This document shows, one piece after another, positions 44,998-64,000 of a stretch of 64,000 bases of DNA. The notes below the pieces were generated by a model. The model had not been told where the DNA came from and searched no databases. It saw nothing but the letters and a program-made list of their open reading frames with translations. The translations under genes and the position numbers were made by a program. The DNA lies in assembly GCA_028286615.1 (NCBI GenBank), contig JAQBRG010000004.1, forward strand, positions 111,867-175,866. The letters are read 5' to 3'. The first letter of the stretch is position 1; every line of letters starts with the position of its first letter. The DNA is from Parcubacteria group bacterium (lineage in GTDB: Bacteria > Patescibacteriota > Minisyncoccia > Phycocordibacterales > Phycocordibacteraceae).

Positions 44998-45027
44998 TTT
45001 GCATTTCCTAGCAGCCTCCTATATATT
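44998..45027 (+). promoter_or_regulatory. rpsL promoter, TTTGCA-17-ATATAT(T)
   Basis: The hexamers lie 35-65 nt upstream of the rpsL ATG. Confidence 0.5.
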
Positions 45028-45062
45028 GCAGGTATCCCGCAGAGCGGGTTTTCATTTGCCAC

Positions 45063-45473
45063 ATGGCCACAATCAACCAGCTCACAAAGTCCGCCCGCAA
45101 GAACAAGACCCGCAAATCAAAGGTGGTGGCCCTTGGTCGTGGTTTCAATGCACTTAAGAACCGCCCTACCTTCTACCCAGCTCCTTTCAAGCGTGGCGTT
45201 TGCACGAAGGTAACTACGAAAACCCCTCGCAAGCCTAACTCAGCTATCCGTAAGATCGCTCGCGTACGTCTCACCAACGGCATGGAAGTAACCGCATACA
45301 TTCCAGGAGAGGGACACAACCTCCAGGAACACTCAGTGGTTATGCTTCGTGGTGGTCGCGTGAAGGACATTGGTGTGCAGTACACCATCGTTCGCGGACG
45401 TCTCGACACGGCCGGTCTTGATAAGCGCCGCCGCTCTCGCTCTCGCTATGGTGCTAAGAAGCCAAAAGCATAG
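45063..45473 (+). CDS. rpsL: 30S ribosomal protein S12
   Basis: [48 protein letters not shown] is an S12 signature. Confidence 0.9.
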
Positions 45474-45498
45474 GCTCTATCAGTTTTAGTACGAAATC

Positions 45499-45963
45499 AT
45501 GCGCCATCCTGTAAAAAACAAGTATCCTCGCCGACCAGACCTTATCTATCAGTCTGAGGCTATCTCCCGTTTCATTAACACTGTTATGTGGGACGGAAAG
45601 AAAGACACAGCTCGTGCCGTTGTGTACGCTGCTCTTGATAAGATCAAGGCACAGGAACTCGATCCTCTTGAGACTTTTGAGACTGCTATCCGCAACGTTT
45701 CTCCGCTCATGGAGGTTCGTTCTCGCCGCGTCGGAGGTGCTAACTACCAGGTTCCTCGCGAAGTTCCTCAGCAGCGCCGCGTATCTCTTGCATACCGTTG
45801 GCTCATCAACGCAGCTCGCGCAAAGAAGGGAAAGCCTATGGCAGACAAGCTTGCAGAAGAAATCATGCTCGCTGTTAAGAACGAAGGCTCAGCAATCAAG
45901 AAGAAGGACGACATGCACCGCATGGCAGACGCCAACAAGGCATTTGCCCACTTCGCTTGGTAA
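45499..45963 (+). CDS. rpsG: 30S ribosomal protein S7
   Basis: VMWDGKKDTARAVVYAAL...RRVGGANYQVP is an S7 signature. Confidence 0.9.
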   Translation: MRHPVKNKYPRRPDLIYQSEAISRFINTVMWDGKKDTARAVVYAALDKIKAQELDPLETFETAIRNVSPLMEVRSRRVGGANYQVPREVPQQRRVSLAYRWLINAARAKKGKPMADKLAEEIMLAVKNEGSAIKKKDDMHRMADANKAFAHFAW

Positions 45964-45984
45964 TTCCAATAACAAGAAAGCAGA

Positions 45985-46018
45985 AACCGCGCTCAAGCTT
46001 GGGCGCGGTTTTTGTTAT
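45985..46018 (+). terminator. Intrinsic terminator after rpsG
   Basis: AACCGCGC-...-GCGCGGTT followed by TTTGTTATTT. Confidence 0.75.
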
Positions 46019-46023
46019 TTATC

Positions 46024-46284
46024 TCATTGGGGTTTCTTCAAATCTCCCATCTTCTCAAGAAGCTCCCTTGATTGCTTAGAGGTATTTCTGAAGCCTAGGG
46101 AGGAAAGATCGTGAGTGCCTGTTGCTCCCCAAGACTGACCCATATTGTCGGTGGCGTAAGTAATGCCGCCGACAGAAGTAAAGCTGGGCGTTCTGCTCGC
46201 TTTTTGATCGCTTGAGAAAGTTATGTTTGGCATAGGCTTAAAGCCTAACTTACGTAACTGTTTACTTAGCCTGCTCGTAGCCAT
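46024..46284 (-). CDS. Hypothetical protein (weak)
   Basis: ORF of 86 aa, Ser/Lys-rich. No other support. Confidence 0.25.
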   Translation of the reverse strand: MATSRLSKQLRKLGFKPMPNITFSSDQKASRTPSFTSVGGITYATDNMGQSWGATGTHDLSSLGFRNTSKQSRELLEKMGDLKKPQ

Positions 46285-46424
46285 CTACGGCTCCTATTGT
46301 TCGAGGCAATTGATGAAGGCGAAGTTTGTGTCTGCCTTGCAATCCGGATGTTTGGTTTCCGCGTATCTGGGAACATCTAGCACGTAGCCTACGCTTATTT
46401 TACGTGTCAGCAAGAATTCTTTTA

Positions 46425-46453
46425 TTGCGCAGATTAAGAACGAGGCATATATT
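46425..46453 (+). promoter_or_regulatory. Promoter TTGCGC-17-TATATT for the KGG-motif gene
   Basis: The hexamers lie 45 nt upstream of the ATG, and a GGAAGGAAG Shine-Dalgarno site is present. Confidence 0.45.
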
Positions 46454-46498
46454 CAAAACAGGACTCCATGGGGAGTTGAGAGTAGGGAAGGAAGTCAG

Positions 46499-46708
46499 AT
46501 GGACGGATCAGAGAAACCAGTGCGTCGCTCCGCACCTCGCGGATTCGCGGCAATGGACGCCGATAAACGTCGCGAGATCGCTCGCAAAGGCGGCAAGAGC
46601 GTCCCGGACGAGAAGCGCAGCTTCTTCCAAGACCGCACTCTGGCCGCCGACGCCGGCAGGAAAGGCGGCAAGCAAACGCAGTCGGGACGGACTCCTGAAA
46701 TCCAGTAG
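46499..46708 (+). CDS. KGG-repeat general stress protein (YciG-like)
   Basis: Two KGG motifs (ARKGGKS, GRKGGKQ) in a 69-aa hydrophilic basic protein. High GC. Confidence 0.55.
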   Translation: MDGSEKPVRRSAPRGFAAMDADKRREIARKGGKSVPDEKRSFFQDRTLAADAGRKGGKQTQSGRTPEIQ

Positions 46709-46771
46709 TCACTAAATAAGACCCAAAATAAAGCCGCGCCTCCTCCCAGGGGCGCGGTTTCTACAATGTAT

Positions 46772-47110
46772 TCAATTCGGTAGCACAGCTTTCCCGACGT
46801 GTGTGAATCCATAGGGCTCAAGATCGACACATTTAAGGATTCGCCACGCTTGGCCAGTTTCATCATAGGCAATGGTCAGACCACCGAGCTTGTTACCAAA
46901 TTCCATAGACATAAAACAAGGTTCGTTTTCAGCTAGGGGACGAAAAACCTTCTTTGCCTCGAGAGGGCTGATTTTGGGCGGGGCTACCTCCTCCGAAAGA
47001 AGGTAGCGAGCTTTAATTAAAGAAACCTCTCGCTTGTCATCTTTGGGGTTGAATGGCTCGAATCCAAGGTGATAAAGCTTGGCTGCGAAAGGGCCTAGGG
47101 AGTCGGTCAC
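46772..47110 (-). CDS. Hypothetical protein
   Basis: ORF of 112 aa. Confidence 0.35.
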   Translation of the reverse strand: MTDSLGPFAAKLYHLGFEPFNPKDDKREVSLIKARYLLSEEVAPPKISPLEAKKVFRPLAENEPCFMSMEFGNKLGGLTIAYDETGQAWRILKCVDLEPYGFTHVGKAVLPN

Positions 47111-47182
47111 TGGACATCTCCTCTGTCTGGCAGGACTCTAACACTTTGGCCGCTTTTTGTCTGTATTTTCGTCTCGAGAGAC

Positions 47183-47212
47183 TTGACAAAGTGACTCTGT
47201 TGCTGTATATTA
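47183..47212 (+). promoter_or_regulatory. Promoter TTGACA-17/18-TATATT
   Basis: Consensus -35 hexamer and a near-consensus -10 hexamer upstream of the 47271 ORF. Confidence 0.5.
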
Positions 47213-47270
47213 GACGCAGCTCATAAGCGCAGGATGTTCCTGCCATGCAAGGCTCAGGAGGGCCTAGAAC

Positions 47271-47510
47271 ATGAATTCTTCGAAAATCCTCGGTTCGATC
47301 GCGGTTATCGGAATGGTCATGATGGCGGTTTCGACCCCCATCCTGCTCAACCAGCCCACCGATTTCTACATCGACGCCGTCTTCAACAAGTACCTGTCCT
47401 TCGTCATGATCTTCGCCGTCGGCCTCGGAATCTTCGCTTCGGCCACCCCGTTCGCCGTCCGCGCCTGGTTCCACGAGCGTCAGCAACTGCTGGCCATCGA
47501 AGCCAACTAA
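47271..47510 (+). CDS. Hypothetical small membrane protein (two TM helices)
   Basis: 79 aa with hydrophobic segments IAVIGMVMMAV and FVMIFAVGLGIFA. High GC. Confidence 0.45.
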   Translation: MNSSKILGSIAVIGMVMMAVSTPILLNQPTDFYIDAVFNKYLSFVMIFAVGLGIFASATPFAVRAWFHERQQLLAIEAN

Positions 47511-47532
47511 ACAACCCCGCCTCCAAGGAGGC

Positions 47533-47572
47533 ACCGGTCGTAGCAATAAAATGCTATGACCGGTTTTTCGTT
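47533..47572 (+). terminator. Intrinsic terminator upstream of fusA
   Basis: ACCGGTCGTAGCA-...-TGCTATGACCGGT followed by TTTTCGTTTC. Confidence 0.7.
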
Positions 47573-47647
47573 TCTTGCGCTTTGGTGCCGCTTTCAGTAC
47601 ATTATAGGTAACGCATTGGCGGGCTTTTTATTTTATTTACTCTACTT

Positions 47648-49795
47648 ATGAACCGCGATTATCCTCTCGAGAAAGTGCGCAACTTCGGTATCGTCGCCCA
47701 CGTGGACGCCGGCAAGACCACCACGTCTGAACGTGTGCTCTTCTACACAGGCTCCCAGCACAAGATTGGAGAGGTGCACGAAGGAGAGACCACCACAGAC
47801 TGGATGGAACAGGAGCGCGAGCGCGGCATCACTATTACTGCTGCTGCCATTACCTGTTTCTGGACTAAGTCCCAGGAGAAGGACAAGAAGGATGTTGCGA
47901 AGAAGTATCGCTTCAATGTTATCGACACTCCAGGACACATCGACTTCACCGCCGAGGTTAAGCGTTCTATGCGTGTGCTCGACGGCGCAATTGTAGTGTT
48001 CGACGGCGTGGCTGGAGTTGAGCCTCAGTCTGAGACTAACTGGCGCTACGCAGACGAAGCCAAAGTGCCTCGCGTTTGTTTCATCAACAAGCTTGACCGT
48101 ACTGGTGCATCGTTCGAAGACTCATACCAGTCCATCCTCGACCGTCTTTCAAAGAAAGCAGTACGTGCACAGATTCCTATGGGAGCTGAAGGAGACTTCG
48201 AAGGAGTTGTGGATCTTCTTTCAATGAAGGCATACACCTTCTCTGGAAACATGGGCGAAGAAGTAATCGAGGGAGAGGTACCAGAGAAGTATCTTGAAGA
48301 TGCTAAGAAGTACCGCACCGAACTCGTTGAGCGCATCGTTGAACATGACGAGGCCCAGATGAACGCGTTCTTCGAAGGAAATGAGCCAACACTCGACGAG
48401 CTCAAGGCAACGCTTCGCAAGGCAGTTATTGATAACGAGATTTTCCCCGTATACACCGGTTCTGCTCTTAAGAACAAGGGTGTGCAGCTCGTACTTGATG
48501 CGGTTGTGGACTTCCTTCCGTCTCCAGTAGACCTCAAGCCAGTTAAGGGAATCAATCCAAAGACCGGAGAAGAAATTGAACGAAAGCCGGACGACAGCGA
48601 GCCATTTACAGCGCTTGCTTTCAAACTTCAGACAGACCCATTCGTTGGAGCTCTTACCTTCTTCCGTGTGTACGCAGGTACTGTTACTGCTGGTTCATAC
48701 GTATACAACGCCAACACCGGTTCTAAGGAGCGTGTAGGACGTATCGTGCGTCTTCAGGCAGACAAGCGTGAGGAAGTGGAGAAGGTTTTCACCGGAGAGA
48801 TCGCCGCTATGGTGGGTCTTAAGGATACGAAGACCTCACACACTCTTTGTGACGAAGCTAATCCAATCATCCTTGAGGAGATTAAATTCCCTGAGCCTGT
48901 GGTATCGCTTCGCATTGAACCAAAGACTAAGGCAGACCAAGAGAAGATGGGCATGGCACTTAAGAAGCTTTCGGACGAAGACCCAACCTTCAAAGTTTCT
49001 TCTGACGACGAGACTGGCGAGACCATCATCGCAGGTATGGGTGAGCTCCACCTTGAGATTCTTGTGGATCGCATGCAGCGCGAGTTCAACGTGGGAGCTA
49101 ACGTTGGTAAGCCACAGGTGGCATACCGCGAAACTATCATGGGAACTGCTGACGTTGATAACAAGTACATCAAACAGACAGGAGGTAAGGGTCAGTATGG
49201 TCACGTGAAGATCAAAGTTAAGCACATGGAGCCAGTTGATCCTGAGGCCAAGGTTGCCAAGAACACTACTCGTGAAGACCACTTCGAGTTCATCAACAAC
49301 ATTAAGGGAGGTGTTATTCCATCTGAATACTTCAACCCTATTGAAAAGGGTATTCGCGAAGCAATGAACCGTGGTGTTCTTGCTGGATACCAGATGGTTG
49401 ATGTGTCCGTAGACCTCTATGATGGGTCCTTCCATGATGTGGACTCCTCTGAAATCGCCTTCAAGATCGCAGCATCTCAGGCATTCCAGGAAGCAGCTCA
49501 GAAGGCTAAGCCAGTTATCCTTGAGCCTATTATGAACGTTGAGGTTGTTGTCCCTGAGCAGTTCATGGGAGACATCACGGGTTCTATCTCAGGTAAGCGT
49601 GGTTCTATCGAAGGAATGGAAGATCGCGGTATGAACAAGGCTATCAAGGCCAAGGTACCGCTTTCAGAAATGTTCGGATACACCACTTCTCTCCGCTCTA
49701 TGACGGAAGGACGCGGTTCTATGACTATGGAATTCGATCACTACGAGGTTGTTCCTCAGAACGTGGCGGCAGATATCATCGCAAGCAGGAAGTAA
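47648..49795 (+). CDS. fusA: Elongation factor G
   Basis: The G domain AHVDAGKTT, followed by DTPGH and NKLD, at a full length of 715 aa. Confidence 0.95.
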
Positions 49796-49812
49796 TTTCT
49801 GAGTGGAGTTTG

Positions 49813-49846
49813 CAAAAGACCGCTTTCAAGCGGCCTTTTGCTTTGT
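49813..49846 (+). terminator. Intrinsic terminator after fusA
   Basis: GACCGC-TTTCAA-GCGGCC (one mismatch) followed by TTTTGCTTTG. Confidence 0.55.
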
Positions 49847-49907
49847 ATGAAATAAGAAAAGGCTTGAGTGGTTAAATACTCAAGCCTTTTCGCACGAAAG
49901 ATCGTCG

Positions 49908-50147
49908 TCAATTGCTGCTCTTTGGGGGCATGTTGATTCGTAACAGGCACACGATGATAGTGATGAGCATGAAGATCAACGAAAGCAGAATGGCCCCTCT
50001 CCACCAGATAGAGGGGTAGCTTACATTTCCCCAAGCAGAGCCTAGCGCTGTCATCCCCCACACCGCGACCCCAAATGGGTGGCCAAAGAGCCACCCAAAA
50101 ACCAGGATGATGGTTGGCGGTCTCATCGTGCTATGCATAAGAGCCAT
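49908..50147 (-). CDS. Hypothetical small membrane protein (weak)
   Basis: 80 aa from the internal Met MALMH, with two hydrophobic helices. The long upstream extension of the ORF would overlap the tuf start and was discarded. Confidence 0.3.
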   Translation of the reverse strand: MALMHSTMRPPTIILVFGWLFGHPFGVAVWGMTALGSAWGNVSYPSIWWRGAILLSLIFMLITIIVCLLRINMPPKSSN

Positions 50148-50440
50148 TGGAACCTTCTCCTCTGAAGCGTTATTGCCTCCTACCCGAACGGTACTTTCAA
50201 TGTCCGTATCTGTAAAGCAATCTCTATCTTTTAGCTTGACCGGCCGGTATCTCTCCGGTATCTTAATTGTTAACGCGAGTACGGCGCTCTTTTCAATGTT
50301 CCTCTCCATACGGGGTAGGGATGGCTGGAAGGCGCTGCGCGGGGGAAAACACCTAACGCCTTGGTCGCCTGCCATTCTCTGATAGAAGCAGGCAGGCGCG
50401 GTGAAGTTATCACTTTTAGCTACCACTAACTTACAAACGT

Positions 50441-51643
50441 ATGGCAGATGCATTCGATCGAAGCAAGCCGCACATGAACGTGGGCACCATCGGCCACGTT
50501 GACCACGGCAAGACGACGCTCACCGCGGCGATCCTCAATGTGCTTAACCTCAACAAGGCAGCAGGCTACAAGGCCCGCGCCGAGAACGTCGATAACATCG
50601 ACAACGCGCCTGAAGAAAAGGCTCGTGGTATTACTATCGCGCTCCACCACTCGGAGTACGAGAGTCCTAACCGTCACTACGCTCACATCGATGCGCCAGG
50701 ACACGCGGACTACATCAAGAACATGATTACGGGAGCTGCCCAGATGGATGGTGCAGTACTCGTAGTTGCTGCTACTGATGGTGCTATGCCTCAGACTCGT
50801 GAGCACATCTTGCTCGCAAAGCAGGTTGGTGTGCCTCGCCTCATCATCTTCCTCAACAAGGTAGATATGGTGGACGATGCAGACATGCTCGACCTCGTTG
50901 AAGAGGAAATCCGTGAGCTTCTAACGAAGCAGGGATTTGATGGAGCAACAACTCCAGTTATTCGCGGTTCAGGTCTTAAGGCTCTTGAAGCAACAGACCC
51001 AACCAACGAATATGCTCTTAAGGTGAAGGAGCTCGTCGATACGATGGACTCTTACTTCCCACAGCCAGAGCGCGATCTTGATAAGCCATTCCTTATGCCT
51101 ATCGAGGACATCTTCTCGATCGAAGGACGCGGTACCGTTATTACGGGACGCATCGAGCGCGGAATCATCAAGGTTGGTGAGGAAGTTGAAATTGTCGGCC
51201 TTCAGCCAACAGCTAAGACAACCGTTACTGGTATCGAGATGTTCAACAAGCAGCTCCAGACAGGAGAGGCAGGCGACAACGCAGGTATTCTTCTCCGTGG
51301 TACGAAGAAGGAAGACGTTCACCGTGGTCAGGTTCTCGCAAAGTCTGGTTCTGTAACGCCTCACACTGACTTCGAAGCAGAGGTATACATCCTCTCTAAG
51401 GACGAAGGTGGACGTCACACTCCTTTCTTCTCAGGATACAAGCCTCAGTTCTACGTTCGTACAACCGACGTAACTGGCGAAGTAACCCTTCCAGATGGAA
51501 AGGAAATGGTTATGCCAGGTGACACTGTTACCTTCAAGGTAAAGCTCACCGCGCCTATCGCACTTGAGGACAACACCCGCTTCTCAGTTCGTGAAGGAGG
51601 CAAGACTGTGGGAGCAGGTGTGGTCACTAAGATCACTGCGTAA
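50441..51643 (+). CDS. tuf: Elongation factor Tu
   Basis: [22 protein letters not shown] and NKVD, at 400 aa. Confidence 0.95.
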
Positions 51644-51655
51644 GCACTTACTCGT

Positions 51656-52018
51656 ATGGCAACCACCGCGAAAAAGACTACGAAGAAAGCGGCCGCAGGC
51701 GAAGCCGCGGCGGAGCCCAAGCTTCGCATCCGCGTGCGCGCCTACGAGCATAAGATCCTCGACCTTTCAGTGAAGCAGATCATGGACACCGCGAATCGCT
51801 TTGAAGCGAAGATCGTAGGCCCAGTACCGCTTCCAACTGAGATAAAGCGATGGACCGTGAACCGTTCTACGTTCGTTCACAAGGACGCACGTGAGCAGTT
51901 CGAAATGCGCATCCACAAGCGTCTTATCGACATCCTTTCGCCAAACCCAAAGGTTATTGAGGCTCTCACGAATCTCAACCTTCCTTCAGGCGTAACGATT
52001 GATGTGAAGATGGTCTAA
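51656..52018 (+). CDS. rpsJ: 30S ribosomal protein S10, with an Ala/Lys-rich N-terminal extension
   Basis: [14 protein letters not shown]...[36 protein letters not shown] is an S10 signature. Confidence 0.9.
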
Positions 52019-52041
52019 CTCGAAAGAGAAGACAAAAGCAA

Positions 52042-52070
52042 AACCGCCCGAGAGGGCGGTTTTCTTTATT
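52042..52070 (+). terminator. Intrinsic terminator after rpsJ
   Basis: AACCGCCC-GAGAG-GGCGGTT followed by TTCTTTATT. Confidence 0.8.
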
Positions 52071-52126
52071 GCCTACTAAATATGTTATCTTTTGCATCTG
52101 TTCTTTAGTTTTAAGGAGGTGGCTTC

Positions 52127-52474
52127 ATGCCTACCGTAGGTGGAATACCGCCTGTAGATCCTCACAGGCTTTACTTGAAGCGAGCGCATCGGGTCGGGAT
52201 GGTCTGGAAAGGAATTGATGACCACAATGTAGCGGTAGCGGTAGAGCTGGAAAGACAGAAGGGCATTCCGCAGAAAAATACCGAACGCTGGAAAAAATGG
52301 AAGGACGAGAACGGTGTTCGTCCTCGGGGCTATGACACTCTTGAAGTGTGGCGCGACCCTCGGACAATGCGGTTTTCCAAACCACCCACACCTCAGCAAC
52401 TGGCTCAGATGTTCGGCATGAAGACAGGTGCAGATCTGCCAATTCCGAACAGACGAAACAATGTCAGACCATAA
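52127..52474 (+). CDS. Hypothetical protein inserted between rpsJ and rplC
   Basis: A strong AAGGAGGT Shine-Dalgarno site lies 6 nt upstream. 115 aa, followed by a 9-bp-stem terminator. Confidence 0.55.
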   Translation: MPTVGGIPPVDPHRLYLKRAHRVGMVWKGIDDHNVAVAVELERQKGIPQKNTERWKKWKDENGVRPRGYDTLEVWRDPRTMRFSKPPTPQQLAQMFGMKTGADLPIPNRRNNVRP

Positions 52475-52501
52475 TCAAACTTGGTTATGCAAAATGAAGA
52501 A

Positions 52502-52538
52502 CGGCCCCGCGATAGTCTGCGGGGCCGCTTATTTTACG
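52502..52538 (+). terminator. Intrinsic terminator
   Basis: CGGCCCCGC-GATAGTCT-GCGGGGCCG followed by CTTATTTTA. Confidence 0.7.
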
Positions 52539-55566: not shown

Positions 55567-55592
55567 AAGGGCAGTCAACAAAGGAGGCTTTC

Positions 55593-56330: not shown

Positions 56331-56332
56331 AT

Positions 56333-57142: not shown

Positions 57143-57169
57143 ATAGAGATAAGTATATATCTAAACAAA

Positions 57170-57193
57170 GGACCCTGCGCGTGCGCAGGGTCC
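57170..57193 (-). terminator. Terminator downstream of the 57200-57766 ORF
   Basis: GGACCCTGCGC-GCGCAGGGTCC, followed on the minus strand by TTTGTTTAG. Confidence 0.6.
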
Positions 57194-57199
57194 GTACTC

Positions 57200-57766
57200 T
57201 TACATATGCCAGCAGATCATCTTATCGAGTTCGTCCGAAAGCAGGCTGCCGCCCGGGAAAACAAAGAACCAAATTTCCCAGGTTACTTGAAGTCGCTCAA
57301 ACATCTCGTGGACTTCGTTTCTTTCAAGAGCGCGGAAGGATTTTCTTGGATGCGGTTCAATTCCCACTAATTCATCGCTATCGATCGCTTCCCGTAACGC
57401 ACGGACAGCCAGCGGGATGCTTTGCTTAGAGACTCGCGATAAGCGCCACCCCAGCCACCTTGCCAGGCGCGAGTAATGTCGTTGCTGACGTCTGTCCCAT
57501 ACTGTGTTCAGTCGCTTGACGGCCTCGTCCTGTCGCTTTTCCAGGCTCGAAACCTTAGAAACGTGTTTAGTTAGCTTGTTATTTCGATCCGTAATCCGCA
57601 CCACCGTCTTGGACCGATGGCTAAAATCTCCAGTCTCAAGAGCTTCTCTGGAGGCCTGAATTACGTTACCTGCAGGTGGAAAGAACTCAATTTGGATGAT
57701 GTTTGGGAGTATATGCCCCATAACCGGTCTCCCTTTCTCATGAATGGACTGGCAAAACCCTAACAT
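57200..57766 (-). CDS. Hypothetical protein
   Basis: ORF of 188 aa (or a shorter version from MGHILPN). It is the first gene of a three-gene minus-strand cassette. Confidence 0.4.
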   Translation of the reverse strand: MLGFCQSIHEKGRPVMGHILPNIIQIEFFPPAGNVIQASREALETGDFSHRSKTVVRITDRNNKLTKHVSKVSSLEKRQDEAVKRLNTVWDRRQQRHYSRLARWLGWRLSRVSKQSIPLAVRALREAIDSDELVGIEPHPRKSFRALERNEVHEMFERLQVTWEIWFFVFPGGSLLSDELDKMICWHM

Positions 57767-57813
57767 AACGGCCTAAAGTTTGACACTTACCGCCATTTCG
57801 TATAGATTTTACC

Positions 57814-57840
57814 TATCCCGCCCAGCGGGCTTTTAACTAC
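57814..57840 (+). promoter_or_regulatory. rpsS leader hairpin plus U-tract, TATCCCGC-CCA-GCGGG-CTTTT, ending 2 nt before the ATG
   Basis: Same arm sequences as the rpsL leader hairpin. Preceded by a TTGACA-15/16-TATAGA promoter at 57780-57807. Confidence 0.5.
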
Positions 57841-57842
57841 TC

Positions 57843-58190
57843 ATGTCCCGTTCCCTCAAGAAAGGCCCATACGTCGACTTCAAGCTCCTGAAGAAAGTTC
57901 AGGACAAAAAGCCTGCATCTGCAGGGGTTATTAAGACGTGGGCACGTAACAGCCAGATCGCTCCTGAGTTCGTTGGATTCACATTCGGTGTACACAACGG
58001 CAAGCAGCACCTGGAAGTTCTTGTGGCTGAGGAGATGGTAGGGCACCGCCTGGGAGAATTCTCTCCAACTAAGAAGTTCGTTCGTCACGGAGGAAAGATG
58101 CAGAAGCAGCTTGAGCAGAAGAAGCAGCAGGCAGAAATAACCGCAGCTAAGGCTGCAAAGGCAGCTCCAGCAGCGCCTAAGAAGAAATAA
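57843..58190 (+). CDS. rpsS: 30S ribosomal protein S19, with an Ala/Lys-rich C-terminal extension
   Basis: [12 protein letters not shown]...[18 protein letters not shown] is an S19 signature. Confidence 0.9.
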
Positions 58191-58191
58191 T

Positions 58192-58608
58192 ATGGCTTCT
58201 ACTGGAACACACCGACCGCCAGCTAAGGCTCGCAAAGAAGAAGCGAAGAAGCAGATTCGTGCTTCTATCGACACCTACAACCAGGCCCCTCGCAAGGTTC
58301 GTCTTGTGACCGACATGATCAAGGGCAAGCGCGTTGCTGACGCTATCGCTGCTCTCTCATTCCTTCCTAAGCGCGCATCTCTTCCAATCAAGAAGCTCAT
58401 CGAGTCAGCTGCAGCTAACGCAAAGCAGAAGGGAGAAGACGTAGACATGCTCCGCGTTGAGGATATTCGTGTAGACTCAGCAGGTATGCTCGTTCGATTC
58501 ATGCCTCGCGCTATGGGTCGTGCAGCTCCTATCCGCAAGCGTCGCAGCCAGGTGGTTATCACCCTCGGTATCGATCCTAAAGCCGTAGCTAAAGCTGCAA
58601 AGGCATAA
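58192..58608 (+). CDS. rplV: 50S ribosomal protein L22
   Basis: PRKVRLVTDMIKGKRVADAIAALSFLPKRAS is an L22 signature. Confidence 0.9.
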   Translation: MASTGTHRPPAKARKEEAKKQIRASIDTYNQAPRKVRLVTDMIKGKRVADAIAALSFLPKRASLPIKKLIESAAANAKQKGEDVDMLRVEDIRVDSAGMLVRFMPRAMGRAAPIRKRRSQVVITLGIDPKAVAKAAKA

Positions 58609-58614
58609 TTTTAT

Positions 58615-59295
58615 ATGACACACACCGTACATCCTTACGCACACCGCCTTGGCATCATCCGTGATTGGAAGAGCCGTTGGTTTGCTATAGACAAGAAGTC
58701 ATACCGCGAGAATCTTGCGGTTGACGCTGCTATCCGTGGCTTCCTCAAGAAGCGTCTTAAGGGTATGCACGTTTCAGATACTGAAATCGAGCGTTCTGCT
58801 AACGAAGTACGCGTTATTCTCCACACTGCTCGCCCAGGTCTCGTAATCGGTCGCTCAGGTGAGAACGCAACCAAGCTCCGCACCGAGCTCAACAAGGTTG
58901 TTCGCAAGATCGCTCCAGCACACGGACGTTCAGTGAAGCTCGACATCATGGAAATCCGCCAGCCTGAGACTTCAGCTGCGGTTGTTGGCCAGATGGTTGC
59001 CGAAGGACTTGAGAAGCGTATGCCGTTCCGCCGCGTTCTTAAGGGAACAGTTGAGAAGGTCATGGGTGTTCGCGAGGTTATCGGAATCCGCATCGTGGTT
59101 TCCGGTCGTCTTGGTGGCGCTGACATGAGCCGCACCGAGCAGATCAAGCGCGGACGTATTCCTCTTCAGACTTTCCGTGCAAATATCGATTACGCGCAAG
59201 TCGAAGCGCTTCTTCCGTACGGAATCATCGGTATCAAGGTTTGGATCTACCTAGGTGAGACCTTCGAGTCCAGCACGCCAGCTACCACAAAATAA
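58615..59295 (+). CDS. rpsC: 30S ribosomal protein S3
   Basis: The KH domain VIGRSGENATKL and the C-terminal domain GRLGGADMSRTEQIKRGRIPLQTFRANIDY are S3 signatures. Confidence 0.9.
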   Translation: MTHTVHPYAHRLGIIRDWKSRWFAIDKKSYRENLAVDAAIRGFLKKRLKGMHVSDTEIERSANEVRVILHTARPGLVIGRSGENATKLRTELNKVVRKIAPAHGRSVKLDIMEIRQPETSAAVVGQMVAEGLEKRMPFRRVLKGTVEKVMGVREVIGIRIVVSGRLGGADMSRTEQIKRGRIPLQTFRANIDYAQVEALLPYGIIGIKVWIYLGETFESSTPATTK

Positions 59296-59297
59296 TT

Positions 59298-59717
59298 ATG
59301 TTGTTTCCTAAAAAAGTTAAACACCGCAAGTGGCAGACAGGACGTAAGTCCCCTGAGAAACTCGCACGTCCTGAGACTCGTGGTATCACGGTAGCCTTCG
59401 GTTCGTACGGTCTTAAGGCCACAAGTCCTTCACGCGTTACTTCTAACCAGATTGAGGCCGCTCGTAAGGTTCTTACACGCGTAACCGGAAAAGGTGGTAA
59501 GCTCTGGATTCGCATCTTCCCAGACCGTCCAATCACCAACAAGCCTGCTGAGGTAGGCATGGGTAAGGGTAAGGGAGATCCTAAGCACTTCGTGTTCGAG
59601 GTACGTCCAGGACGTGTGCTCTTCGAGCTTGATGGTGTGGACGATGCTAAGGCACGGGACGCACTTCGCCGCGCTGGTGGAAAGCTTCCGCTTAAGACTA
59701 CGATAGTCACCCGCTAG
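59298..59717 (+). CDS. rplP: 50S ribosomal protein L16
   Basis: MLFPKKVKHRKWQTGR...GMGKGKGDPKHFVFEVRPGRVLFEL is an L16 signature. Confidence 0.9.
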   Translation: MLFPKKVKHRKWQTGRKSPEKLARPETRGITVAFGSYGLKATSPSRVTSNQIEAARKVLTRVTGKGGKLWIRIFPDRPITNKPAEVGMGKGKGDPKHFVFEVRPGRVLFELDGVDDAKARDALRRAGGKLPLKTTIVTR

Positions 59718-59727
59718 ATATTTACGT

Positions 59728-59922
59728 ATGGCAAAGAAAATTTCATTCAAAGAGAAGAGTGCAGACGAGCTAGCAAAGCTTCTTATGGAGAAGCGTGAAG
59801 AGCTTCGTACCCTTCGTTTCTCATTCGCAGGTTCTCGTGGCAAAGACAGCAATGCTGCAGGAAAGACTCGCAAAGACGTCGCTCGTATCCTTACGGAGAT
59901 GACCGCAAAGAAGATCGCATAA
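59728..59922 (+). CDS. rpmC: 50S ribosomal protein L29
   Basis: LMEKREELRTLRFSFAGSRGKDSN is an L29-like helix pair. 64 aa, in the expected position. Confidence 0.85.
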   Translation: MAKKISFKEKSADELAKLLMEKREELRTLRFSFAGSRGKDSNAAGKTRKDVARILTEMTAKKIA

Positions 59923-59930
59923 ACACTACT

Positions 59931-60179
59931 ATGGAAAACACTAACCCAAAGCCTCAGACCTTCCGCGGAACCGTTGTTAAAACGGCCATGAAGGACACGG
60001 CTACCGTTTCCGTATCTCGCTACGTGAAGCACCCTAAGTACCAGAAGTTCCAGATCCTCACGAAGAAGTTCCTCGTTGACGACAAGGGTAACACTGCTAA
60101 GGAAGGGGACGAGGTTACTATCGTAGCCTGCGCACCTATCTCTAAGCGCAAGTCATTCAAGATCGCCAAGGCCGATTAA
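59931..60179 (+). CDS. rpsQ: 30S ribosomal protein S17
   Basis: FRGTVVKTAMKDTATVSVSRYVKHPKYQK...GDEVTIVACAPISKRKSF is an S17 signature. Confidence 0.9.
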   Translation: MENTNPKPQTFRGTVVKTAMKDTATVSVSRYVKHPKYQKFQILTKKFLVDDKGNTAKEGDEVTIVACAPISKRKSFKIAKAD

Positions 60180-60190
60180 CTACCTTTACC

Positions 60191-60568
60191 ATGATCCAGA
60201 CCCAATCAATCGTAACCATTGCAGACAACTCAGGCGGTAAAATCGCTCGTGTCTTCAAGGTGCTCGGTGGCTCAAAGCGTCGCTACGCACAGATCGGGGA
60301 TGTGGTTGTGGCTTCTATCCAGACTGCAGAACCTCGCAAGTCAGTTAAGAAGAAGGACATCGTTAAGTGCGTGGTTGTTCGTCAGCGCAAGGCATACCGC
60401 CGTGCTAACGGCATCTACGTGCGCTTTGATGACAACGCCGTTGTTATCATCGAGAAGCAGGGAAAGGAGATGGGTCCTAAGGGAAACCGTGTCTTTGGTC
60501 CTGTACCACGCGACCTCGTCGACCGCGGATGGCAGAACATCGCATCCCTCGCACCTGAGGTTGTATAA
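60191..60568 (+). CDS. rplN: 50S ribosomal protein L14
   Basis: MIQTQSIVTIADNSGGKIARVFKVLGGSKRRYAQIGDVV is an L14 signature. Confidence 0.95.
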   Translation: MIQTQSIVTIADNSGGKIARVFKVLGGSKRRYAQIGDVVVASIQTAEPRKSVKKKDIVKCVVVRQRKAYRRANGIYVRFDDNAVVIIEKQGKEMGPKGNRVFGPVPRDLVDRGWQNIASLAPEVV

Positions 60569-60578
60569 CATTTGATAT

Positions 60579-60923
60579 ATGTCTAAAGCATCTAAAGGTC
60601 TCCAGACCGCAAAGTTTAAAGTAAAGAAAGGTGACGAAGTTATCGTTATCTCAGGCAAGGACAAGGGCACAACCGGAAAGGTTGCTCGCGTTCTTCCTCA
60701 GGAAGCCAAGGTTGTTATCGACGGCGTTGCTCTCGTTAAGCGTCACCTTCGCAAGACCGGTCGCGGCCAGTCTGGGCGCATCATTGAGAAGCCTCGTGCA
60801 ATCGCTATCTCAAACGTTATGGTCTATGACGCAAAAGAGAAGAAGGGTACTCGCGTTAAGCGCGTTCTCGCAGACGGCAAGCGTTCACGCGTAACCGTAA
60901 AGAGCGGCACCACCCTCTCGTAA
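60579..60923 (+). CDS. rplX: 50S ribosomal protein L24
   Basis: The KOW motif KKGDEVIVISGKDKGTTGKV. In the expected position. Confidence 0.9.
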   Translation: MSKASKGLQTAKFKVKKGDEVIVISGKDKGTTGKVARVLPQEAKVVIDGVALVKRHLRKTGRGQSGRIIEKPRAIAISNVMVYDAKEKKGTRVKRVLADGKRSRVTVKSGTTLS

Positions 60924-60933
60924 TCCTATATTT

Positions 60934-61476
60934 ATGTTGATTTCAAAAGAAAAACAGGCAAGCGCATTTGATGCACTCAAAGGACAGTTCGGTTACGCGA
61001 ACGTCTTCGCGTCTCCCAAGCTCGTAAAGGTTACGGTGTCTTCAGGCGTAGGTAAGGCAGACAAGGCTCGCAAGGCACTTGTTGAGAGCCGTCTCGCTCG
61101 TATCACGGGCCAGAAGGCATCAGCTCGTCCTGCTAAGCAGTCCATCGCACAGTTCAAGATGCGTGAAGGCGATATCGTTGGCTTCCAGGTTACGCTCCGC
61201 GGCAACCGTATGAATGACTTCGTAGACAAGCTCATCCACATCGCACTTCCTCGTACTCGTGACTTCCGTGGTCTTACGGCGACAGCAATCGACGAGATGG
61301 GTAACCTCACGATCGGTATCAAGGACCATACAATCTTCCCCGAGACTACAGACGAAGATCTTAAGGACGTGTTTGGTATCGCCATCACCCTCGTTACAAC
61401 CGCCAAGAACAAGGTTGAAGCTGAAGCATTCTTCCGCCACCTAGGCATTCCGTTTAAGAACGAAACTGAGGCATAA
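60934..61476 (+). CDS. rplE: 50S ribosomal protein L5
   Basis: PKLVKVTVSSGVG, GQKASARPAKQSIAQFKMREGDIVGFQVTLRG and DFRGL are L5 signatures. Confidence 0.9.
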   Translation: MLISKEKQASAFDALKGQFGYANVFASPKLVKVTVSSGVGKADKARKALVESRLARITGQKASARPAKQSIAQFKMREGDIVGFQVTLRGNRMNDFVDKLIHIALPRTRDFRGLTATAIDEMGNLTIGIKDHTIFPETTDEDLKDVFGIAITLVTTAKNKVEAEAFFRHLGIPFKNETEA

Positions 61477-61480
61477 GACA

Positions 61481-61510
61481 AACGGCCCGAAAGGGCCGTT
61501 TTGCTTTAGC
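61481..61510 (+). terminator. Intrinsic terminator after rplE
   Basis: AACGGCCC-GAAA-GGGCCGTT followed by TTGCTTTAG. Confidence 0.8.
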
Positions 61511-61599
61511 GGTTTTATAGCCATAGCTATTTGACAAGCTAGCTAATATTCAGTATTGTGATTTCAGACCCAATAACCAGCCCTTGAAAGGGGATACCC

Positions 61600-62136
61600 A
61601 TGACAGTTTCGTGTGATGCTGAATATGTATTCATCTCTCCTGACGCGATCCGTCTATCAGAACGTATGCGCAGTTTGGTCGAGGATGTTCAAAGCGTCCT
61701 CTGCGTTGAAGTGGAAGGGAAAAACTTAACGCTCAGGTTCTCTTTTGAGCGTGCGAACGAAGTAGGGATGAGCTCTGTTTATAGCATGACAAACGAGATA
61801 TTCGAGTTGGCAAAGATTCTTAAATACGCTGAGGAACAGCATCGTATTCCGCTTGACGACCTTCTCGAGTTCCTTCCGAGCGATAACATGACAGTCTCGG
61901 ACATGCGGAGTTCACTCGGAAGCCTGAACGAGAGAGTCACCAATGAGGTGGCTGGAATTATTGCCCATCGTTTCAACGAGAGCTACGTAACAGTTGAGGG
62001 ATGGAAAGATCGCGTGGAAGGCAGATTCTTGTTCGCTACAATAACCTTGGCCGGGCACGGCGAGGTGTTCGGTACCTTCGACAATGATTTTCCTTTTGAG
62101 GAAGCAGCCGTCTTGTTTGACGAAATAGAAAAGTAA
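61600..62136 (+). CDS. Hypothetical protein inserted between rplE and rpsN
   Basis: 178 aa. Preceded by a TTGACA-17-TATTGT promoter-like element. A terminator lies downstream. Confidence 0.5.
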   Translation: MTVSCDAEYVFISPDAIRLSERMRSLVEDVQSVLCVEVEGKNLTLRFSFERANEVGMSSVYSMTNEIFELAKILKYAEEQHRIPLDDLLEFLPSDNMTVSDMRSSLGSLNERVTNEVAGIIAHRFNESYVTVEGWKDRVEGRFLFATITLAGHGEVFGTFDNDFPFEEAAVLFDEIEK

Positions 62137-62151
62137 GAAGCATCTTATTCA

Positions 62152-62188
62152 ATGCCCTGCGGGAAAACCGCAGGGCATGGTTATTTTC
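62152..62188 (+). terminator. Intrinsic terminator
   Basis: ATGCCCTGCGG-GAAAA-CCGCAGGGCAT followed by GGTTATTTTCG. Confidence 0.75.
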
Positions 62189-62270
62189 GTCCCTATGGCC
62201 GGCGTTTGTTTGACAGATGCATCCTAAAAGTGTTTGATGCGCATAGATACAGCAAAGAAGGGAACTACCT

Positions 62271-62738
62271 ATGCAAGCGACTCTCGCGCGGCCGAGCCTC
62301 AAACTCGTGTCTTGGTGCCATCTGAAGCCGGTGACGATCAAGATCGAACAGCATGTTCCGGTCGATCCACGAATCTTCCCTGCGGCCCAGGAGGGGTTTG
62401 ATGACTTCTCCATGGCGTCTCAGGTCTCATATTTCGGCTATAAAATGGGGCTCGTCGACATCTCGGGCCTTACGCACGAGGAGGTGAAGGAGCGGGTTAA
62501 AATCGATTTTGATTACGGGCATTCGACATCGGCAGTCGAATTTCTTAGGTGTCTCGAGTTCATTCAGTCGGAGCACTGCACGCCTTTCCCGTTCGAGCGC
62601 ATCGCCGCGTATCCGGTAGGGAGCGAGCCTGTGGCCGCAGTACGCATCGAAAATGGCTTCAAACGTGTCCCGTGTCCCGATCCAGAGACCCTCTGGGAGC
62701 CCGGCACACTTGGCCTGTTCAACGTCCCAGACCTTTAG
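62271..62738 (+). CDS. Hypothetical protein (elevated GC), inserted upstream of rpsN
   Basis: 155 aa. A GCGGGG-type hairpin with TCTTGTCTT lies downstream on the + strand. A competing 111-aa ORF on the minus strand was rejected. Confidence 0.4.
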
Positions 62739-62814
62739 TCCAAGTATCCAAGGCCCCGCCAAGCGGGGTCTTGTCTTAATTTCACAGAAAGTAATGCGAC
62801 TGACCAGCCTAGGT

Positions 62815-62843
62815 TTGACAGCCTACTTCCTAGCTGATAGATT
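62815..62843 (+). promoter_or_regulatory. Promoter TTGACA-17-TAGATT upstream of rpsN
   Basis: The hexamers lie 30 nt upstream of the rpsN ATG. Confidence 0.5.
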
Positions 62844-62874
62844 ACTTGAACGGCTCCCCGGAGCTATTTTTCTT

Positions 62875-63144
62875 ATGGCAAAAGCATCCCAAATCGCCCG
62901 CAACAACAAGCGCATCAAGCTTGTTGCAAAGTACGCTGTTAAGCGTGCTGCTCTTAAGGCTGCGGGGGATTCAGTGGGTCTTCAGAAGCTTCCCAAGAAC
63001 TCTTCACCAGTACGTGTAAACAACCGCTGTGCCGTAACCGGCCGCCAGCGCGGATACATGCGTCCTTTCGGACTTTCTCGCATCACGTTCCGCGAACTCG
63101 CACGTGAGGGAAAGATCCCAGGTGTTAAGAAGGCTTCTTGGTAA
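62875..63144 (+). CDS. rpsN: 30S ribosomal protein S14 (long, non-zinc form)
   Basis: [29 protein letters not shown]...[39 protein letters not shown] is an S14 signature. It has only a single Cys, so it is not the Zn-ribbon type Z. Confidence 0.85.
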
Positions 63145-63154
63145 TTTACGTACT

Positions 63155-63544
63155 ATGGTTACTGACCGCGTTGGAGATTTCATCATCCGTCTTAAGAATG
63201 CAGGAGCTATTAACAAAGCTTCGGTGTCTGTTCCGTACTCAAAGCATGTTGAAGAGATCGCAAACAAGCTTAAGTCTCTTGGCTACGTAGCTAACGTTGG
63301 AAAGAGCAAAGAGCCTTACATGTTTGAAGTTGCTCTCGCGTACGACGAACGTGGACAGCACAAGATCCGCGGCGTGAAGCGTGTTTCAAAGCCAGGTCGT
63401 CGTCTCTACATTCCTTCAACTGATGCACACACAGTGAAGAATGGTCTTGGTGCTCGTCTTATCTCAACTCCTCGTGGAGTTCTTACTGACTCAGAAGCTC
63501 GCAAGGTCCGTGCTGGCGGCGAGAATCTCTTTGAGATCTGGTAG
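63155..63544 (+). CDS. rpsH: 30S ribosomal protein S8
   Basis: MVTDRVGDFIIRLKNA...GLGARLISTPRGVLTDSEARKVRAGGENLFEIW is an S8 signature. Confidence 0.9.
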   Translation: MVTDRVGDFIIRLKNAGAINKASVSVPYSKHVEEIANKLKSLGYVANVGKSKEPYMFEVALAYDERGQHKIRGVKRVSKPGRRLYIPSTDAHTVKNGLGARLISTPRGVLTDSEARKVRAGGENLFEIW

Positions 63545-63559
63545 TTTCATTTCTGTACT

Positions 63560-64000
63560 ATGTCCCGTCTCGCTAAAAAGCCTATCGCTATCCCTTCCAA
63601 AGTAACCGTCACTGCTGACGGAGGCATGCTTATGGTTAAGGGTTCAAAGGCAACACTCGAACGCTCCATTCACCCTGGTATCTTGATTGAAGTTACTCCT
63701 GAGGGCGTATTGGTTACTCCTCGCAACACGAGCAAGCTTTCTAAGGCTCTTACCGGAACTTTCGCCGCACACGCACAGGCAATGATGATGGGAGTAGAAA
63801 CTCCTTTTAAGAAGACGCTCATCATGAAGGGTGTTGGATTCAAGGTTGAACTTCGTGGACGCGACCTCGTGTTCAACGTAGGTTTCTCTCACCCCGTAAC
63901 CCTTACCGTTCCTGAGGGACTTGAGGCACGTGTTGAGAAGCTCAACATCATCGTTGAAGGCGCAGACAAGCAGAAGGTTGGACAGTTCGCAGCAGAGATT
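63560..64000 (+). CDS. rplF: 50S ribosomal protein L6 (3'-partial; runs off the window end)
   Basis: MSRLAKKPIAIPSKVTVT...MKGVGFKVELRG is an L6 signature with no stop before position 64000. The ORF was not in the supplied track because it lacks a stop codon. Confidence 0.9.
   Translation, partial: MSRLAKKPIAIPSKVTVTADGGMLMVKGSKATLERSIHPGILIEVTPEGVLVTPRNTSKLSKALTGTFAAHAQAMMMGVETPFKKTLIMKGVGFKVELRGRDLVFNVGFSHPVTLTVPEGLEARVEKLNIIVEGADKQKVGQFAAEI

Follow-up and report, generated by a model that had tools for sequence, protein, structure and literature searches.

Probable clade-wide modular re-partitioning of the str/S10/spc ribosomal-protein cluster in Paceibacteria

The S10-spc block of ribosomal-protein genes is the textbook case of selection holding both gene order and co-transcription fixed, and it underlies the '16 syntenic ribosomal proteins' used for placing bacteria of the Candidate Phyla Radiation (CPR) in phylogenies. 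We know of nothing established about the regulation of ribosome synthesis in uncultured CPR bacteria. Here we analysed a stretch of 64,000 nucleotides (nt) from a Parcubacteria group bacterium (assembly GCA_028286615.1, contig JAQBRG010000004.1, positions 111,867 to 175,866), hereafter called the window, whose final part carries the str/S10/spc cluster; all positions below are those of the window. The cluster keeps its gene order but lies in six units separated by five wide gaps, and the same five joints are open among related Paceibacteria, which we take to reflect, in all likelihood, a modular re-partitioning of the cluster that is common to the clade.

Units and terminators of the cluster

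All 21 of the 21 str-S10-spc genes are present in the canonical order and on the plus strand, as seen in the list of open reading frames (ORFs) and by Pfam, so that the universal cluster is complete. Unit 1 consists of rpsL (45063-45473) and rpsG (45499-45963) and is followed by a gap of 1687 nt; unit 2 is fusA alone (47648-49795), followed by 648 nt; unit 3 is made of tuf (50441-51643) and rpsJ (51656-52018), followed by 849 nt; unit 4 comprises rplC (52865-53479), rplD (53491-54249), rplW (54260-54634) and rplB (54652-55494), followed by 2351 nt; unit 5 (57843-61476) runs from rpsS (57843-58190) through rplV, rpsC, rplP, rpmC, rpsQ, rplN and rplX to rplE (60934-61476), followed by 1401 nt; and unit 6, with rpsN (62875-63144), rpsH (63155-63544) and rplF (from 63560), continues past the end of the window. 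Units 1, 3 and 4 were read from the ORF list and Pfam, unit 2 from the ORF list and unit 6 from Pfam. The five wide gaps thus measure 0.65-2.35 kb and the remaining spacers 4-28 nt. The borders of the classical operons are closed in the window, with 15 nt between tuf and rpsJ and 14 nt between rpsQ and rplN. At the sequence level there is no S10 operon of the E. coli type, contiguous from rpsJ to rpsQ behind one promoter and leader, since the rpsJ|rplC and rplB|rpsS gaps hold terminators, opposite-strand genes and restart promoters and rpsJ follows closely on tuf. Hence the account given in the first-pass annotation of this DNA, a cluster fragmented into at least six terminated units with non-ribosomal ORFs inside the five gaps, was borne out.

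Unit ends carry predicted terminators on the plus strand. The one after rpsG (45979-46016) has a 17-bp stem and folds with -27.1 kcal/mol (z -6.8); that after fusA (49812-49841) reaches -16.8 kcal/mol, that after rpsJ (52040-52063), which reads both ways, -18.5 kcal/mol, that after rplB (55498-55521) -17.7 kcal/mol (z -5.4) and that after rplE (61481-61502) -16.7 kcal/mol. Within the gaps, plus-strand terminators stand 3' of a 79-amino-acid (79-aa) ORF in gap 1 (47533-47564), of a 115-aa gene in gap 3 (52502-52527), and of a 178-aa ORF (62152-62178) and a 155-aa ORF (62749-62773) in gap 5; on the minus strand, the 188-aa ORF of gap 4 is followed by a terminator at 57193-57170, and a second two-way hairpin in gap 2 (49856-49891, -23.7 kcal/mol) provides a minus-strand terminator at 49891-49856. 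All seven terminators listed beforehand were recovered, the further ones being those at 47533-47564, 62749-62773, 57193-57170 and 49891-49856. The terminators of the window have a long GC stem with a U tract behind it; their energies lie between -16.7 and -27.1 kcal/mol and their z scores, relative to shuffles, between -3.3 and -8.0. The region contains 46 terminator-like sites, against 20.2 +/- 4.4 in shuffled sequence. By their sequence, the sites beginning at 45979, 49812, 52040, 52502, 55498, 61481, 62152 and 62749 are predicted to be intrinsic terminators. The rpsJ, rplB and rplE terminators (52035-52067, 55493-55525 and 61474-61506) follow one template with 76% identity, an AAAG-A-tract, a GC stem, a 4-nt loop, a U tract and CTTT; being symmetric, they could stop transcription from both directions.

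The proteins encoded by the cluster show a side feature. S10, L4 and L22 have Lys/Ala-rich N-terminal extensions outside their Pfam domains (51656-51724, 53491-53620 and 58192-58280), the domains beginning at residues 24, 45 and 30, respectively, and S19 has a Lys/Ala-rich C-terminal tail (58100-58190) beyond a domain that ends at residue 82 of 115.

Joints and restarts in related species

Taking a single locus from each of 80 related species, we located 20 proteins of the window on these loci and determined the length of all 19 junctions. The closest L2 proteins belong to metagenome-assembled genomes (MAGs) of Paceibacteria/Parcubacteria and are 60-89% identical; a look-up of the L2 of the window by exact match yielded no record. 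The rplB|rpsS junction spans at least 80 nt in all 61 loci where it was measured and at least 300 nt in 52 (median 954 nt), the smallest gap being 81 nt, and in 6 further loci no rpsS is found within at least 5 kb downstream of rplB. The fusA|tuf junction attains at least 80 nt in 38 of 38 loci and at least 300 nt in 31 (median 987 nt), rplE|rpsN in 37 and 31 of 45 (median 794 nt), rpsG|fusA in 18 and 13 of 25 (median 521 nt) and rpsJ|rplC in 27 and 16 of 61 (median 62 nt). The other 14 junctions remain shorter than 300 nt, with the single exception of tuf|rpsJ in one locus. Thus the five joints flagged in the window are the five joints open across the clade, and the breaks cannot be taken for insertions restricted to this genome. 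Three loci with independent gene calls (L081-L083, L2 86-87% identical) are divided into identical units, and hypothetical genes occupy the corresponding gaps; three metagenome contigs (L088, L120 and L136) have the same layout. Terminator-like hairpins are placed in the same manner: they directly follow the stop codon of rplB in 26% of relatives, of rplE in 24%, of fusA in 21%, of rpsG in 16% and of rpsJ in 13%, and all other gene ends in 0-3%.

The proposal that each unit restarts from its own promoter finds a promoter-like counterpart in the sequence at every unit. Upstream of rpsL, a promoter-like site TTTGCA-18-TATATT (44998-45027) precedes the hairpin CCCGC-AGA-GCGGG with its U tract (45036-45048); upstream of fusA, a promoter-like region includes a short leader hairpin, ACGC-AUUG-GCG, with a U tract (47575-47647); tuf is preceded by TTGACC-17-TATCTT (50236-50264) and rplC by TTTGCA-18-TATAGT (52737-52766). 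The rpsS promoter, TTGACA-17-TAGATT (57780-57808), is followed by the hairpin CCCGC-CCA-GCGGG and a U tract (57817-57829), and the rpsN promoter, again TTGACA-17-TAGATT with a TG upstream (62815-62843), by GCUCC-CC-GGAGC and a U tract (62852-62865), all of these elements lying on the plus strand. Alignment of the regions upstream of rpsL, fusA, tuf, rplC, rpsS and rpsN revealed a common design of sigma-70 type: a TTGACA-type -35 box, a spacer of 17-18 nt, a -10 box that is often extended, and a structure about 7-9 nt later. The structure therefore begins a few nt from the predicted transcription start and is followed by a U-rich tract and then by an ATG without Shine-Dalgarno sequence. Such sequences are rare at the ribosomal-protein genes in general, a GGAG/GAGG/AGGA core being found at 5% of 602 starts (window 45063-63560 and loci L001-L080); the 20 nt before these starts are A/U-rich, often with TAC 4-7 nt ahead of the ATG. 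Some gap ORFs, unlike the ribosomal-protein genes, have clear GGAGG sites, for instance at 55581-55588 and 52110-52117. In gap 4, about 27 nt separate the terminator of the 188-aa ORF from the start codon of the next gene downstream on the minus strand, DUF3298 (57143-57199, minus strand). This arrangement repeats the 'hairpin, U tract, ATG' geometry of the ribosomal-protein restarts, and the design may thus be a general one in the genome.

The restarts are maintained among relatives. In 61 of them, rpsS is preceded by a promoter-like site in 87% and by a hairpin with a T run at most 45 nt from the ATG in 72%, compared with 19% and 13% for control gap ORFs. The rpsS hairpin is kept while its stem letters vary (CCCGC/GCGGG, AGCUC/GAGCU, GGCC/GGCC, CGCC/GGCG). 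For rpsL, a hairpin with a T run stands at most 45 nt from the start in 17 of 19 relatives, and the promoter/hairpin element of fusA is kept as well, including in loci L007 and L012, where the gap is 50 nt. Gaps devoid of genes still contain a promoter and a leader (L007, L012, L004, L008 and L009). In L007, the rplB|rpsS gap of 81 nt has the promoter and hairpin design; in L007 and L012, the rpsJ|rplC gaps of about 172 nt are composed of terminator, promoter and leader; in L004, L008 and L009, rplE and rpsN are separated by 45-62 nt and the promoter lies within the end of rplE. The presence of the restart design in gene-free gaps is the main argument, drawn from sequence, that the units were split first and that genes were probably inserted in the gaps later.

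Several observations weigh against a modular re-partitioning. The sampled lineages are Paceibacteria only, the search for S19 homologues having returned just relatives with more than 80% identity. Terminators of the strict criteria lie directly 3' of the upstream gene in just 13-26% of relatives. The short leader hairpins are weak, at -3 to -9 kcal/mol with z scores that are not significant, that of fusA being among the weak ones. Plus-strand gap genes, such as the diacylglycerol kinase (DAGK) genes of relatives, could share a transcript with the ribosomal-protein genes on either side. Lastly, the consensus TTGACA promoters reported at first stood in part: four perfect TTGACA-17 sites are located exactly at unit starts (47183, 57780, 61531 and 62815), but the total of promoter-like sites, 11 versus 13.9 +/- 3.4 expected by chance, is not above shuffles.

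Some of these points are shared by the main rival explanation, in which the cluster is still polycistronic, the hairpins being leaky internal attenuators or elements of RNA processing or stability that adjust stoichiometry, with much of the transcription reading through and internal promoters supplementary. An archaeon is documented to control ribosomal-protein operons by means of internal terminators (PMC10450193), the leader hairpins resemble weak terminators, the plus-strand genes of several gaps could be carried on a common transcript, and only a minority of relatives have a strict terminator right after rplB or rplE. Against this, the unit-end hairpins of the window are long GC stems with U tracts and energies of -17 to -27 kcal/mol, and the rpsS and rpsN promoters are highly conserved. 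Moreover, the rplB|rpsS gap contains three minus-strand genes, to which read-through would be antisense, which argues against read-through at that joint. We therefore hold a still polycistronic cluster to be unlikely and a re-partitioning into modules across the clade to be the probable state.

Contents and turnover of the gaps

Gap 1 contains an 86-aa ORF (46024-46284, minus strand), a KGG protein gene (46499-46708, plus; Pfam E 1.9e-11), a 112-aa ORF (46772-47110, minus), a promoter (47183-47211, plus) and the 79-aa ORF with two transmembrane segments (47271-47510, plus). Gap 3 has the gene of the 115-aa protein, a member of a small uncharacterised family (52127-52474, plus). In gap 4, a promoter (55524-55553, plus) and a 76-aa membrane ORF (55593-55823, plus) are followed by the three minus-strand genes, HIT (55896-56330; E 1.4e-20), DUF3298 (56333-57142; E 1.7e-14) and the 188-aa orphan (57200-57766), and in gap 5 a promoter (61531-61559) precedes the 178-aa orphan (61600-62136) and the 155-aa ORF (62271-62738), all on the plus strand. 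Pfam confirmed the KGG, HIT and DUF3298 assignments proposed earlier, and the two small membrane ORFs (76 and 79 aa) are present. The DUF3298 protein is membrane-anchored and weakly similar to RsiV and PdaC. Two gap ORFs match NCBI proteins exactly (MDB5265074.1 and MDB5265084.1; JWN64_645 and JWN64_655).

Gap 2 is mostly promoter and conserved tuf leader, of about 170 nt. A 181-aa ORF listed there (49908-50453, minus strand) has a coding score of -0.12 and resembles relatives only in the part that overlaps the leader; as a full gene it was rejected for its N-terminal part, which overlaps the conserved leader. Its hydrophobic C-terminal part, about 78 aa (49908-50144, minus), is a probable small membrane-protein gene and is followed by the minus-strand terminator 49891-49856.

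Most of the gap ORFs are lineage-specific; across the 80 loci, 331 of 400 gap ORFs are singletons. No match other than to themselves was found for the 178-aa and 188-aa ORFs among 5.8 billion proteins, in a word-based search that very distant relatives could escape, and PHROGs and NCBIfam gave no matches for the unknown gap ORFs. The 115-aa family has 10 distant homologues with 33-53% identity; the rpsG|fusA gap also holds a KGG gene in L001 and, in L072, a homologue of the 86-aa ORF. The comparison with related loci found one gene kept in position, DUF3298: throughout the near subclade it occupies the minus strand between rplB and rpsS, so that for this gene the outcome named beforehand as refuting an insertion holds. 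Its identity is 33-49% where that of L2 is 71-89%; for L081-L083, the values against the window are about 39% for DUF3298 and 93% for EF-Tu. The syntenic DUF3298 gene thus diverges unusually fast beside very slowly evolving genes. The other gap ORFs show no similarity to their positional equivalents in genomes whose L2 is 86-87% identical, and gap contents other than DUF3298 differ even at 86-89% L2 identity, the gaps themselves being not polymorphic. No sampled relative has a counterpart of the HIT gene of gap 4 between rplB and rpsS; a second, distant HIT paralogue, 27% identical, lies 26 kb upstream (29137-29616, minus). The Pfam families in the rplB|rpsS gaps of relatives are ordinary and diverse, with DAGK in 9, DUF3298 in 8 and an IS200-like transposase in 5, besides MazF, mechanosensitive-channel proteins, L10/L12 and purine/pyrimidine enzymes. 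In alignment A1, Ribosomal_L10 is found in two of these gaps (in one together with L7/L12), the IS200-like Y1 transposase in five and MazF in three; hence genes of another ribosomal operon, mobile genes or toxin genes can land at rplB|rpsS.

Such transposase and MazF genes, the many lineage-specific or orphan ORFs and the Shine-Dalgarno sites of some gap ORFs, unlike those of the ribosomal-protein genes, speak for recent foreign insertions, by which mobile or horizontally acquired DNA would have broken a continuous cluster, the hairpins and promoters arriving with the cassettes. The presence/absence differences between close relatives are likewise such as a genomic island or mobile element would show. 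Yet the first description of the inserts as foreign-looking, and of some as having elevated GC content, gains no support from composition, flanking repeats or mobile-element genes in the window. Gap GC content is 0.48-0.52, against 0.49 for the window, and the comparison of k-mer composition between inserts and window showed native gaps, with tetranucleotide distances between the 3rd and the 80th percentile of the null distribution. A search at the gap borders disclosed no target-site duplications, inverted repeats or flanking repeats, the three look-alike terminators being the sole notable repeat family. Pfam, PHROGs and NCBIfam (PADLOC was left out) yielded no integrase, transposase, phage or mobile-element family among the window gap ORFs, and Rfam and tRNA scans nothing relevant inside the gaps. 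In addition, these five joints are also open in the relatives, at best in 61 of 61 species, which indicates that the gaps predate the species splits, and 13 of the 14 others stay below 300 nt throughout; the restart promoters and leaders are conserved and exist where no gene is inserted (L007 and L012), and DUF3298 has been inherited at the same position across the subclade. Foreign insertion is thus very unlikely, and rapid native turnover is the better description of the gap contents.

An artefact of assembly, binning or ORF calling, that is, a chimeric contig or random frames in spacers, could be read into the low coding scores of several gap ORFs and into the 181-aa ORF, which is largely produced by the conserved leader on the opposite strand. 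However, an independent assembly (Logan, SRR13312974) gives rpsS, the 188-aa ORF, DUF3298, HIT and the 76-aa ORF again, which argues against misassembly of the rplB|rpsS gap. The layout is common to more than 80 independent MAGs and contigs, homologues exist for KGG, HIT, DUF3298 and the 115-aa family, and the gap ORFs have promoter-like sites and terminators of their own, so that we give an artefact hardly any credence.

Outside the gaps, the compositional outliers of the window are an HTH_3 (XRE-type) regulator gene (39378-39893, minus), with a GC content of 0.64 and 0.83 at third codon positions (GC3), and two adjacent ORFs at 13895-15581 (plus) with a GC3 of about 0.70; they look more foreign than anything in the ribosomal gaps. 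Directly upstream of rpsL lies the gene of a 746-aa secreted LCAT-like alpha/beta-hydrolase (42754-44994, minus). In many bacteria rpoB-rpoC precede rpsL; neither was among the 11 large ORFs of positions 1-45 kb that were scanned with Pfam. Further genes of the window encode RNase Y (7368-8897, minus), NusA (11464-12885, minus), a PilB-type ATPase (17015-18766, plus), RecJ (29602-31338, plus), ComEC (31825-33318, plus) and a DinB-family polymerase (40549-41844, plus).

The rplC and tuf leaders and comparison with known systems

A structured leader of about 100 nt precedes rplC (52750-52864, plus strand). Its first part, P1, is made of GCUAnGU, a hairpin and ACCAAUGGC, in this order; P2 is optional; and P3 is a GC-rich terminator-like hairpin (52833-52852, plus), whose U tract stops about 4-10 nt short of the ATG. 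A ACCAAUGG motif is complementary to the P3 loop. We aligned 14 sequences, folded the alignment and built a covariance model, which matched 22 of 81 sources (1.3 Mb) with a single hit in each locus, always on the gene strand. For eleven hits of the window's clade the sequence upstream of rplC was read, and each of them lies directly upstream of that gene. In the metagenome contigs L088, L120 and L136 the leader is directly upstream of rplC, and in L089 it ends about 190 nt before the aligned rplC start. A metagenome scan with the motif GCTANGT...GGACCAATGG retrieved mostly chance matches; in 4 of 80 kept loci the match is next to rplC, of two other matches, one runs into a contig end (L087) and one is likely to be spurious (L107). 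Of the 27 loci with an open rpsJ|rplC joint, 14 have the leader; of the 34 with a closed joint, none does. On folding, 94.3% of the cells are paired, compared with 81.4% for shuffles (0 of 500 reach 94.3%); slid controls give 25-49%. Compensatory changes are seen in 8 of 14 pairs, and the window copy folds with z = -4.4. Rfam 15 (positions 44000-64000, E at most 1) has no match at 52750-52864 or at the tuf leader, 50269-50440, its only hits being sub-threshold chance hits on terminator hairpins. By its position in the 5' untranslated region, its conservation across species and its covariation-supported structure, the element upstream of rplC qualifies as a candidate ribosomal-protein leader RNA.

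In almost every member, a conserved ACC(A/U)AUGG motif is complementary to the P3 loop or to its apical 3' side. Motif and loop vary together (AUGGCAGA/UCUGUCAU, AUAGCAA/UUGCUGU, CAGCAAU/AUUGCUG, UGGUA/UACCA), and duplexes of a motif with its own loop average -8.07 kcal/mol, against -6.25 kcal/mol for cross-pairs (permutation p < 2e-4, a value inflated by sequence relatedness). The UGG bases of the motif are also part of P1, implying that the two pairings compete. Among the candidate long-range pairings, that of motif and loop is the only conserved one; a long-range antiterminator helix between a 5' GUCGCUAA and the 3' strand of P3, seen in the minimum-energy fold of the window, was dropped, the other sequences showing no such complementarity by eye.

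The tuf leader (50269-50440, plus), of about 170 nt, is structured and kept in near relatives; in its consensus from 7 sequences, 93.3% of the cells are paired and 10 pairs are compensatory. In more distant Paceibacteria (L007-L014 and L030-L058), the leader opens, directly after the promoter, with a conserved hairpin AACGC...GCGUU or AACUGC...GCAGUU and a U tract. The 5' element of tuf therefore has a much wider distribution than the full leader, which is that of the window's subclade.

What is observed is the arrangement of the units and its conservation, conserved sequences of promoters and leaders, covariation, and gap contents that turn over; how these work together can be proposed as follows. 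Each module, with its sigma-70-type promoter, its 5' structure (a short GC hairpin and U tract at rpsL, fusA, rpsS and rpsN, about 170 nt at tuf and about 100 nt at rplC) and its strong intrinsic terminator, would be transcribed independently. In bacteria with 5'-end-dependent decay, 5' stem-loops have an established role in protecting mRNA, and RNase Y is encoded in the window; from this, and from geometry and conservation, the short hairpins may protect or stabilise the 5' end of the mRNA, the alternative being that they are weak promoter-proximal attenuators. NusA, encoded in the window as well, is relevant, like RNase Y, to termination, to the reading of leader hairpins and to 5'-end-dependent decay. 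The rplC and tuf leaders would provide feedback specific to their modules. In E. coli, L4 stops transcription in the S10 leader (PMC3616713), and in Archaeoglobi an L4 leader candidate is situated upstream of rplC (PMC7247131); by analogy, we infer that the rplC leader may be an attenuator that senses a ribosomal protein, L4 or L3 and most likely L4. The joints, lying between transcription units, would tolerate gain or loss of DNA without operon breakage, so that novelty accumulates only there, and they may have become sites of turnover for small, fast-evolving genes, many of them orphan or membrane genes. Put together, Paceibacteria would have rebuilt ribosomal-protein control as small modules, with the rplC leader as a new class of L4-/L3-responsive attenuator (with pairing of its ACCAAUGG motif to the loop of the terminator), the tuf leader as a second new regulatory RNA, the joints as cradles of orphan genes and the coincidence with archaeal breakpoints, described below, as a sign of ribosome-assembly modules. 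We put this whole forward tentatively, as a possibility more doubtful than the layout itself. Two points count against its regulatory part: the covariation tests were made on related sequences, with alignment A3 fitted to the model, which makes the statistics optimistic, and the motif-loop pairing could be a pseudoknot instead of a switch.

This class of bacteria retains the gene order and would have given up the operon, with reproducible cuts, two of which match archaeal breakpoints; order and co-transcription would accordingly be separable constraints. As concrete, testable candidates for regulation in CPR bacteria, the cluster offers its conserved promoters, its 5' hairpins and the leaders of rplC and tuf, and the joints are natural sites for studying the rate of orphan-gene turnover. 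Genomes of this kind will be misannotated by operon or gene-neighbourhood predictors built on an uninterrupted S10 operon. Should the proposal be true, the joints, which adjoin some of the most highly transcribed genes, would be a cradle for orphan and possibly newly arisen small genes, and the match of breakpoints with archaea would point to functional ribosome-assembly modules rather than to chance.

The layout had been presented as not described before. We found no description of it in Patescibacteria, in a literature search of incomplete coverage; the uS10|uL3 and uL2|uS19 breaks, in contrast, are known from archaea. In E. coli, the str, S10 and spc operons are under autogenous control by S7, L4 and S8, and the S10 leader contains the terminator at which L4 and NusA stop transcription (PMC3616713). 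The window shares with E. coli the genes and their order, the leaders and terminator hairpins, and a terminator-like hairpin at the head of the L4-encoding unit, just ahead of its first gene. It differs in that the str|S10 and S10|spc borders are closed and the breaks fall inside the classical operons, in that the leader precedes rplC and not rpsJ, and in that unrelated genes interrupt a set that E. coli has in one 11-gene operon. The insertions of Gammaproteobacteria part whole operons from one another and not operon interiors (PMC6735719); there as here, insertions gather at transcription-unit borders of an otherwise rigid block, but those of Gammaproteobacteria lie between the classical operons, whereas in Paceibacteria they lie inside str, S10 and spc, at borders specific to the clade.

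Conserved structured RNAs before internal subsets of S10 genes, which imply internal regulatory starts, have precedents in the L4 leader candidate of Archaeoglobi, upstream of rplC-rplD-rplW-rplB, and the L2 leader candidate of Alphaproteobacteria, upstream of rplB-rpsS-rplV-rpsC (PMC7247131). Those belong to other lineages, and the rplC leader of Paceibacteria has an architecture of its own, with P1, the ACCAAUGG motif and a terminator loop that pairs with the motif. A likeness in layout is found in another domain: in Asgard and other archaea, uS10 stands alone, uL3-uL4-uL23-uL2 form a small cluster and uS19-uL22-uS3-... open the large one, so that the uS10|uL3 and uL2|uS19 breakpoints coincide with those of Paceibacteria (PMC10833476). 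In archaea, however, the small cluster lies elsewhere in the genome, while the Paceibacteria modules are usually collinear and 0.1-7 kb apart, and the uL5|uS14 break of Paceibacteria is outside the archaeal pattern. Promoters and leaders were outside the analysis of the archaeal study (PMC10833476); in Paceibacteria, conserved promoters and 5' structures are found before rplC and rpsS as well as at the other restarts.

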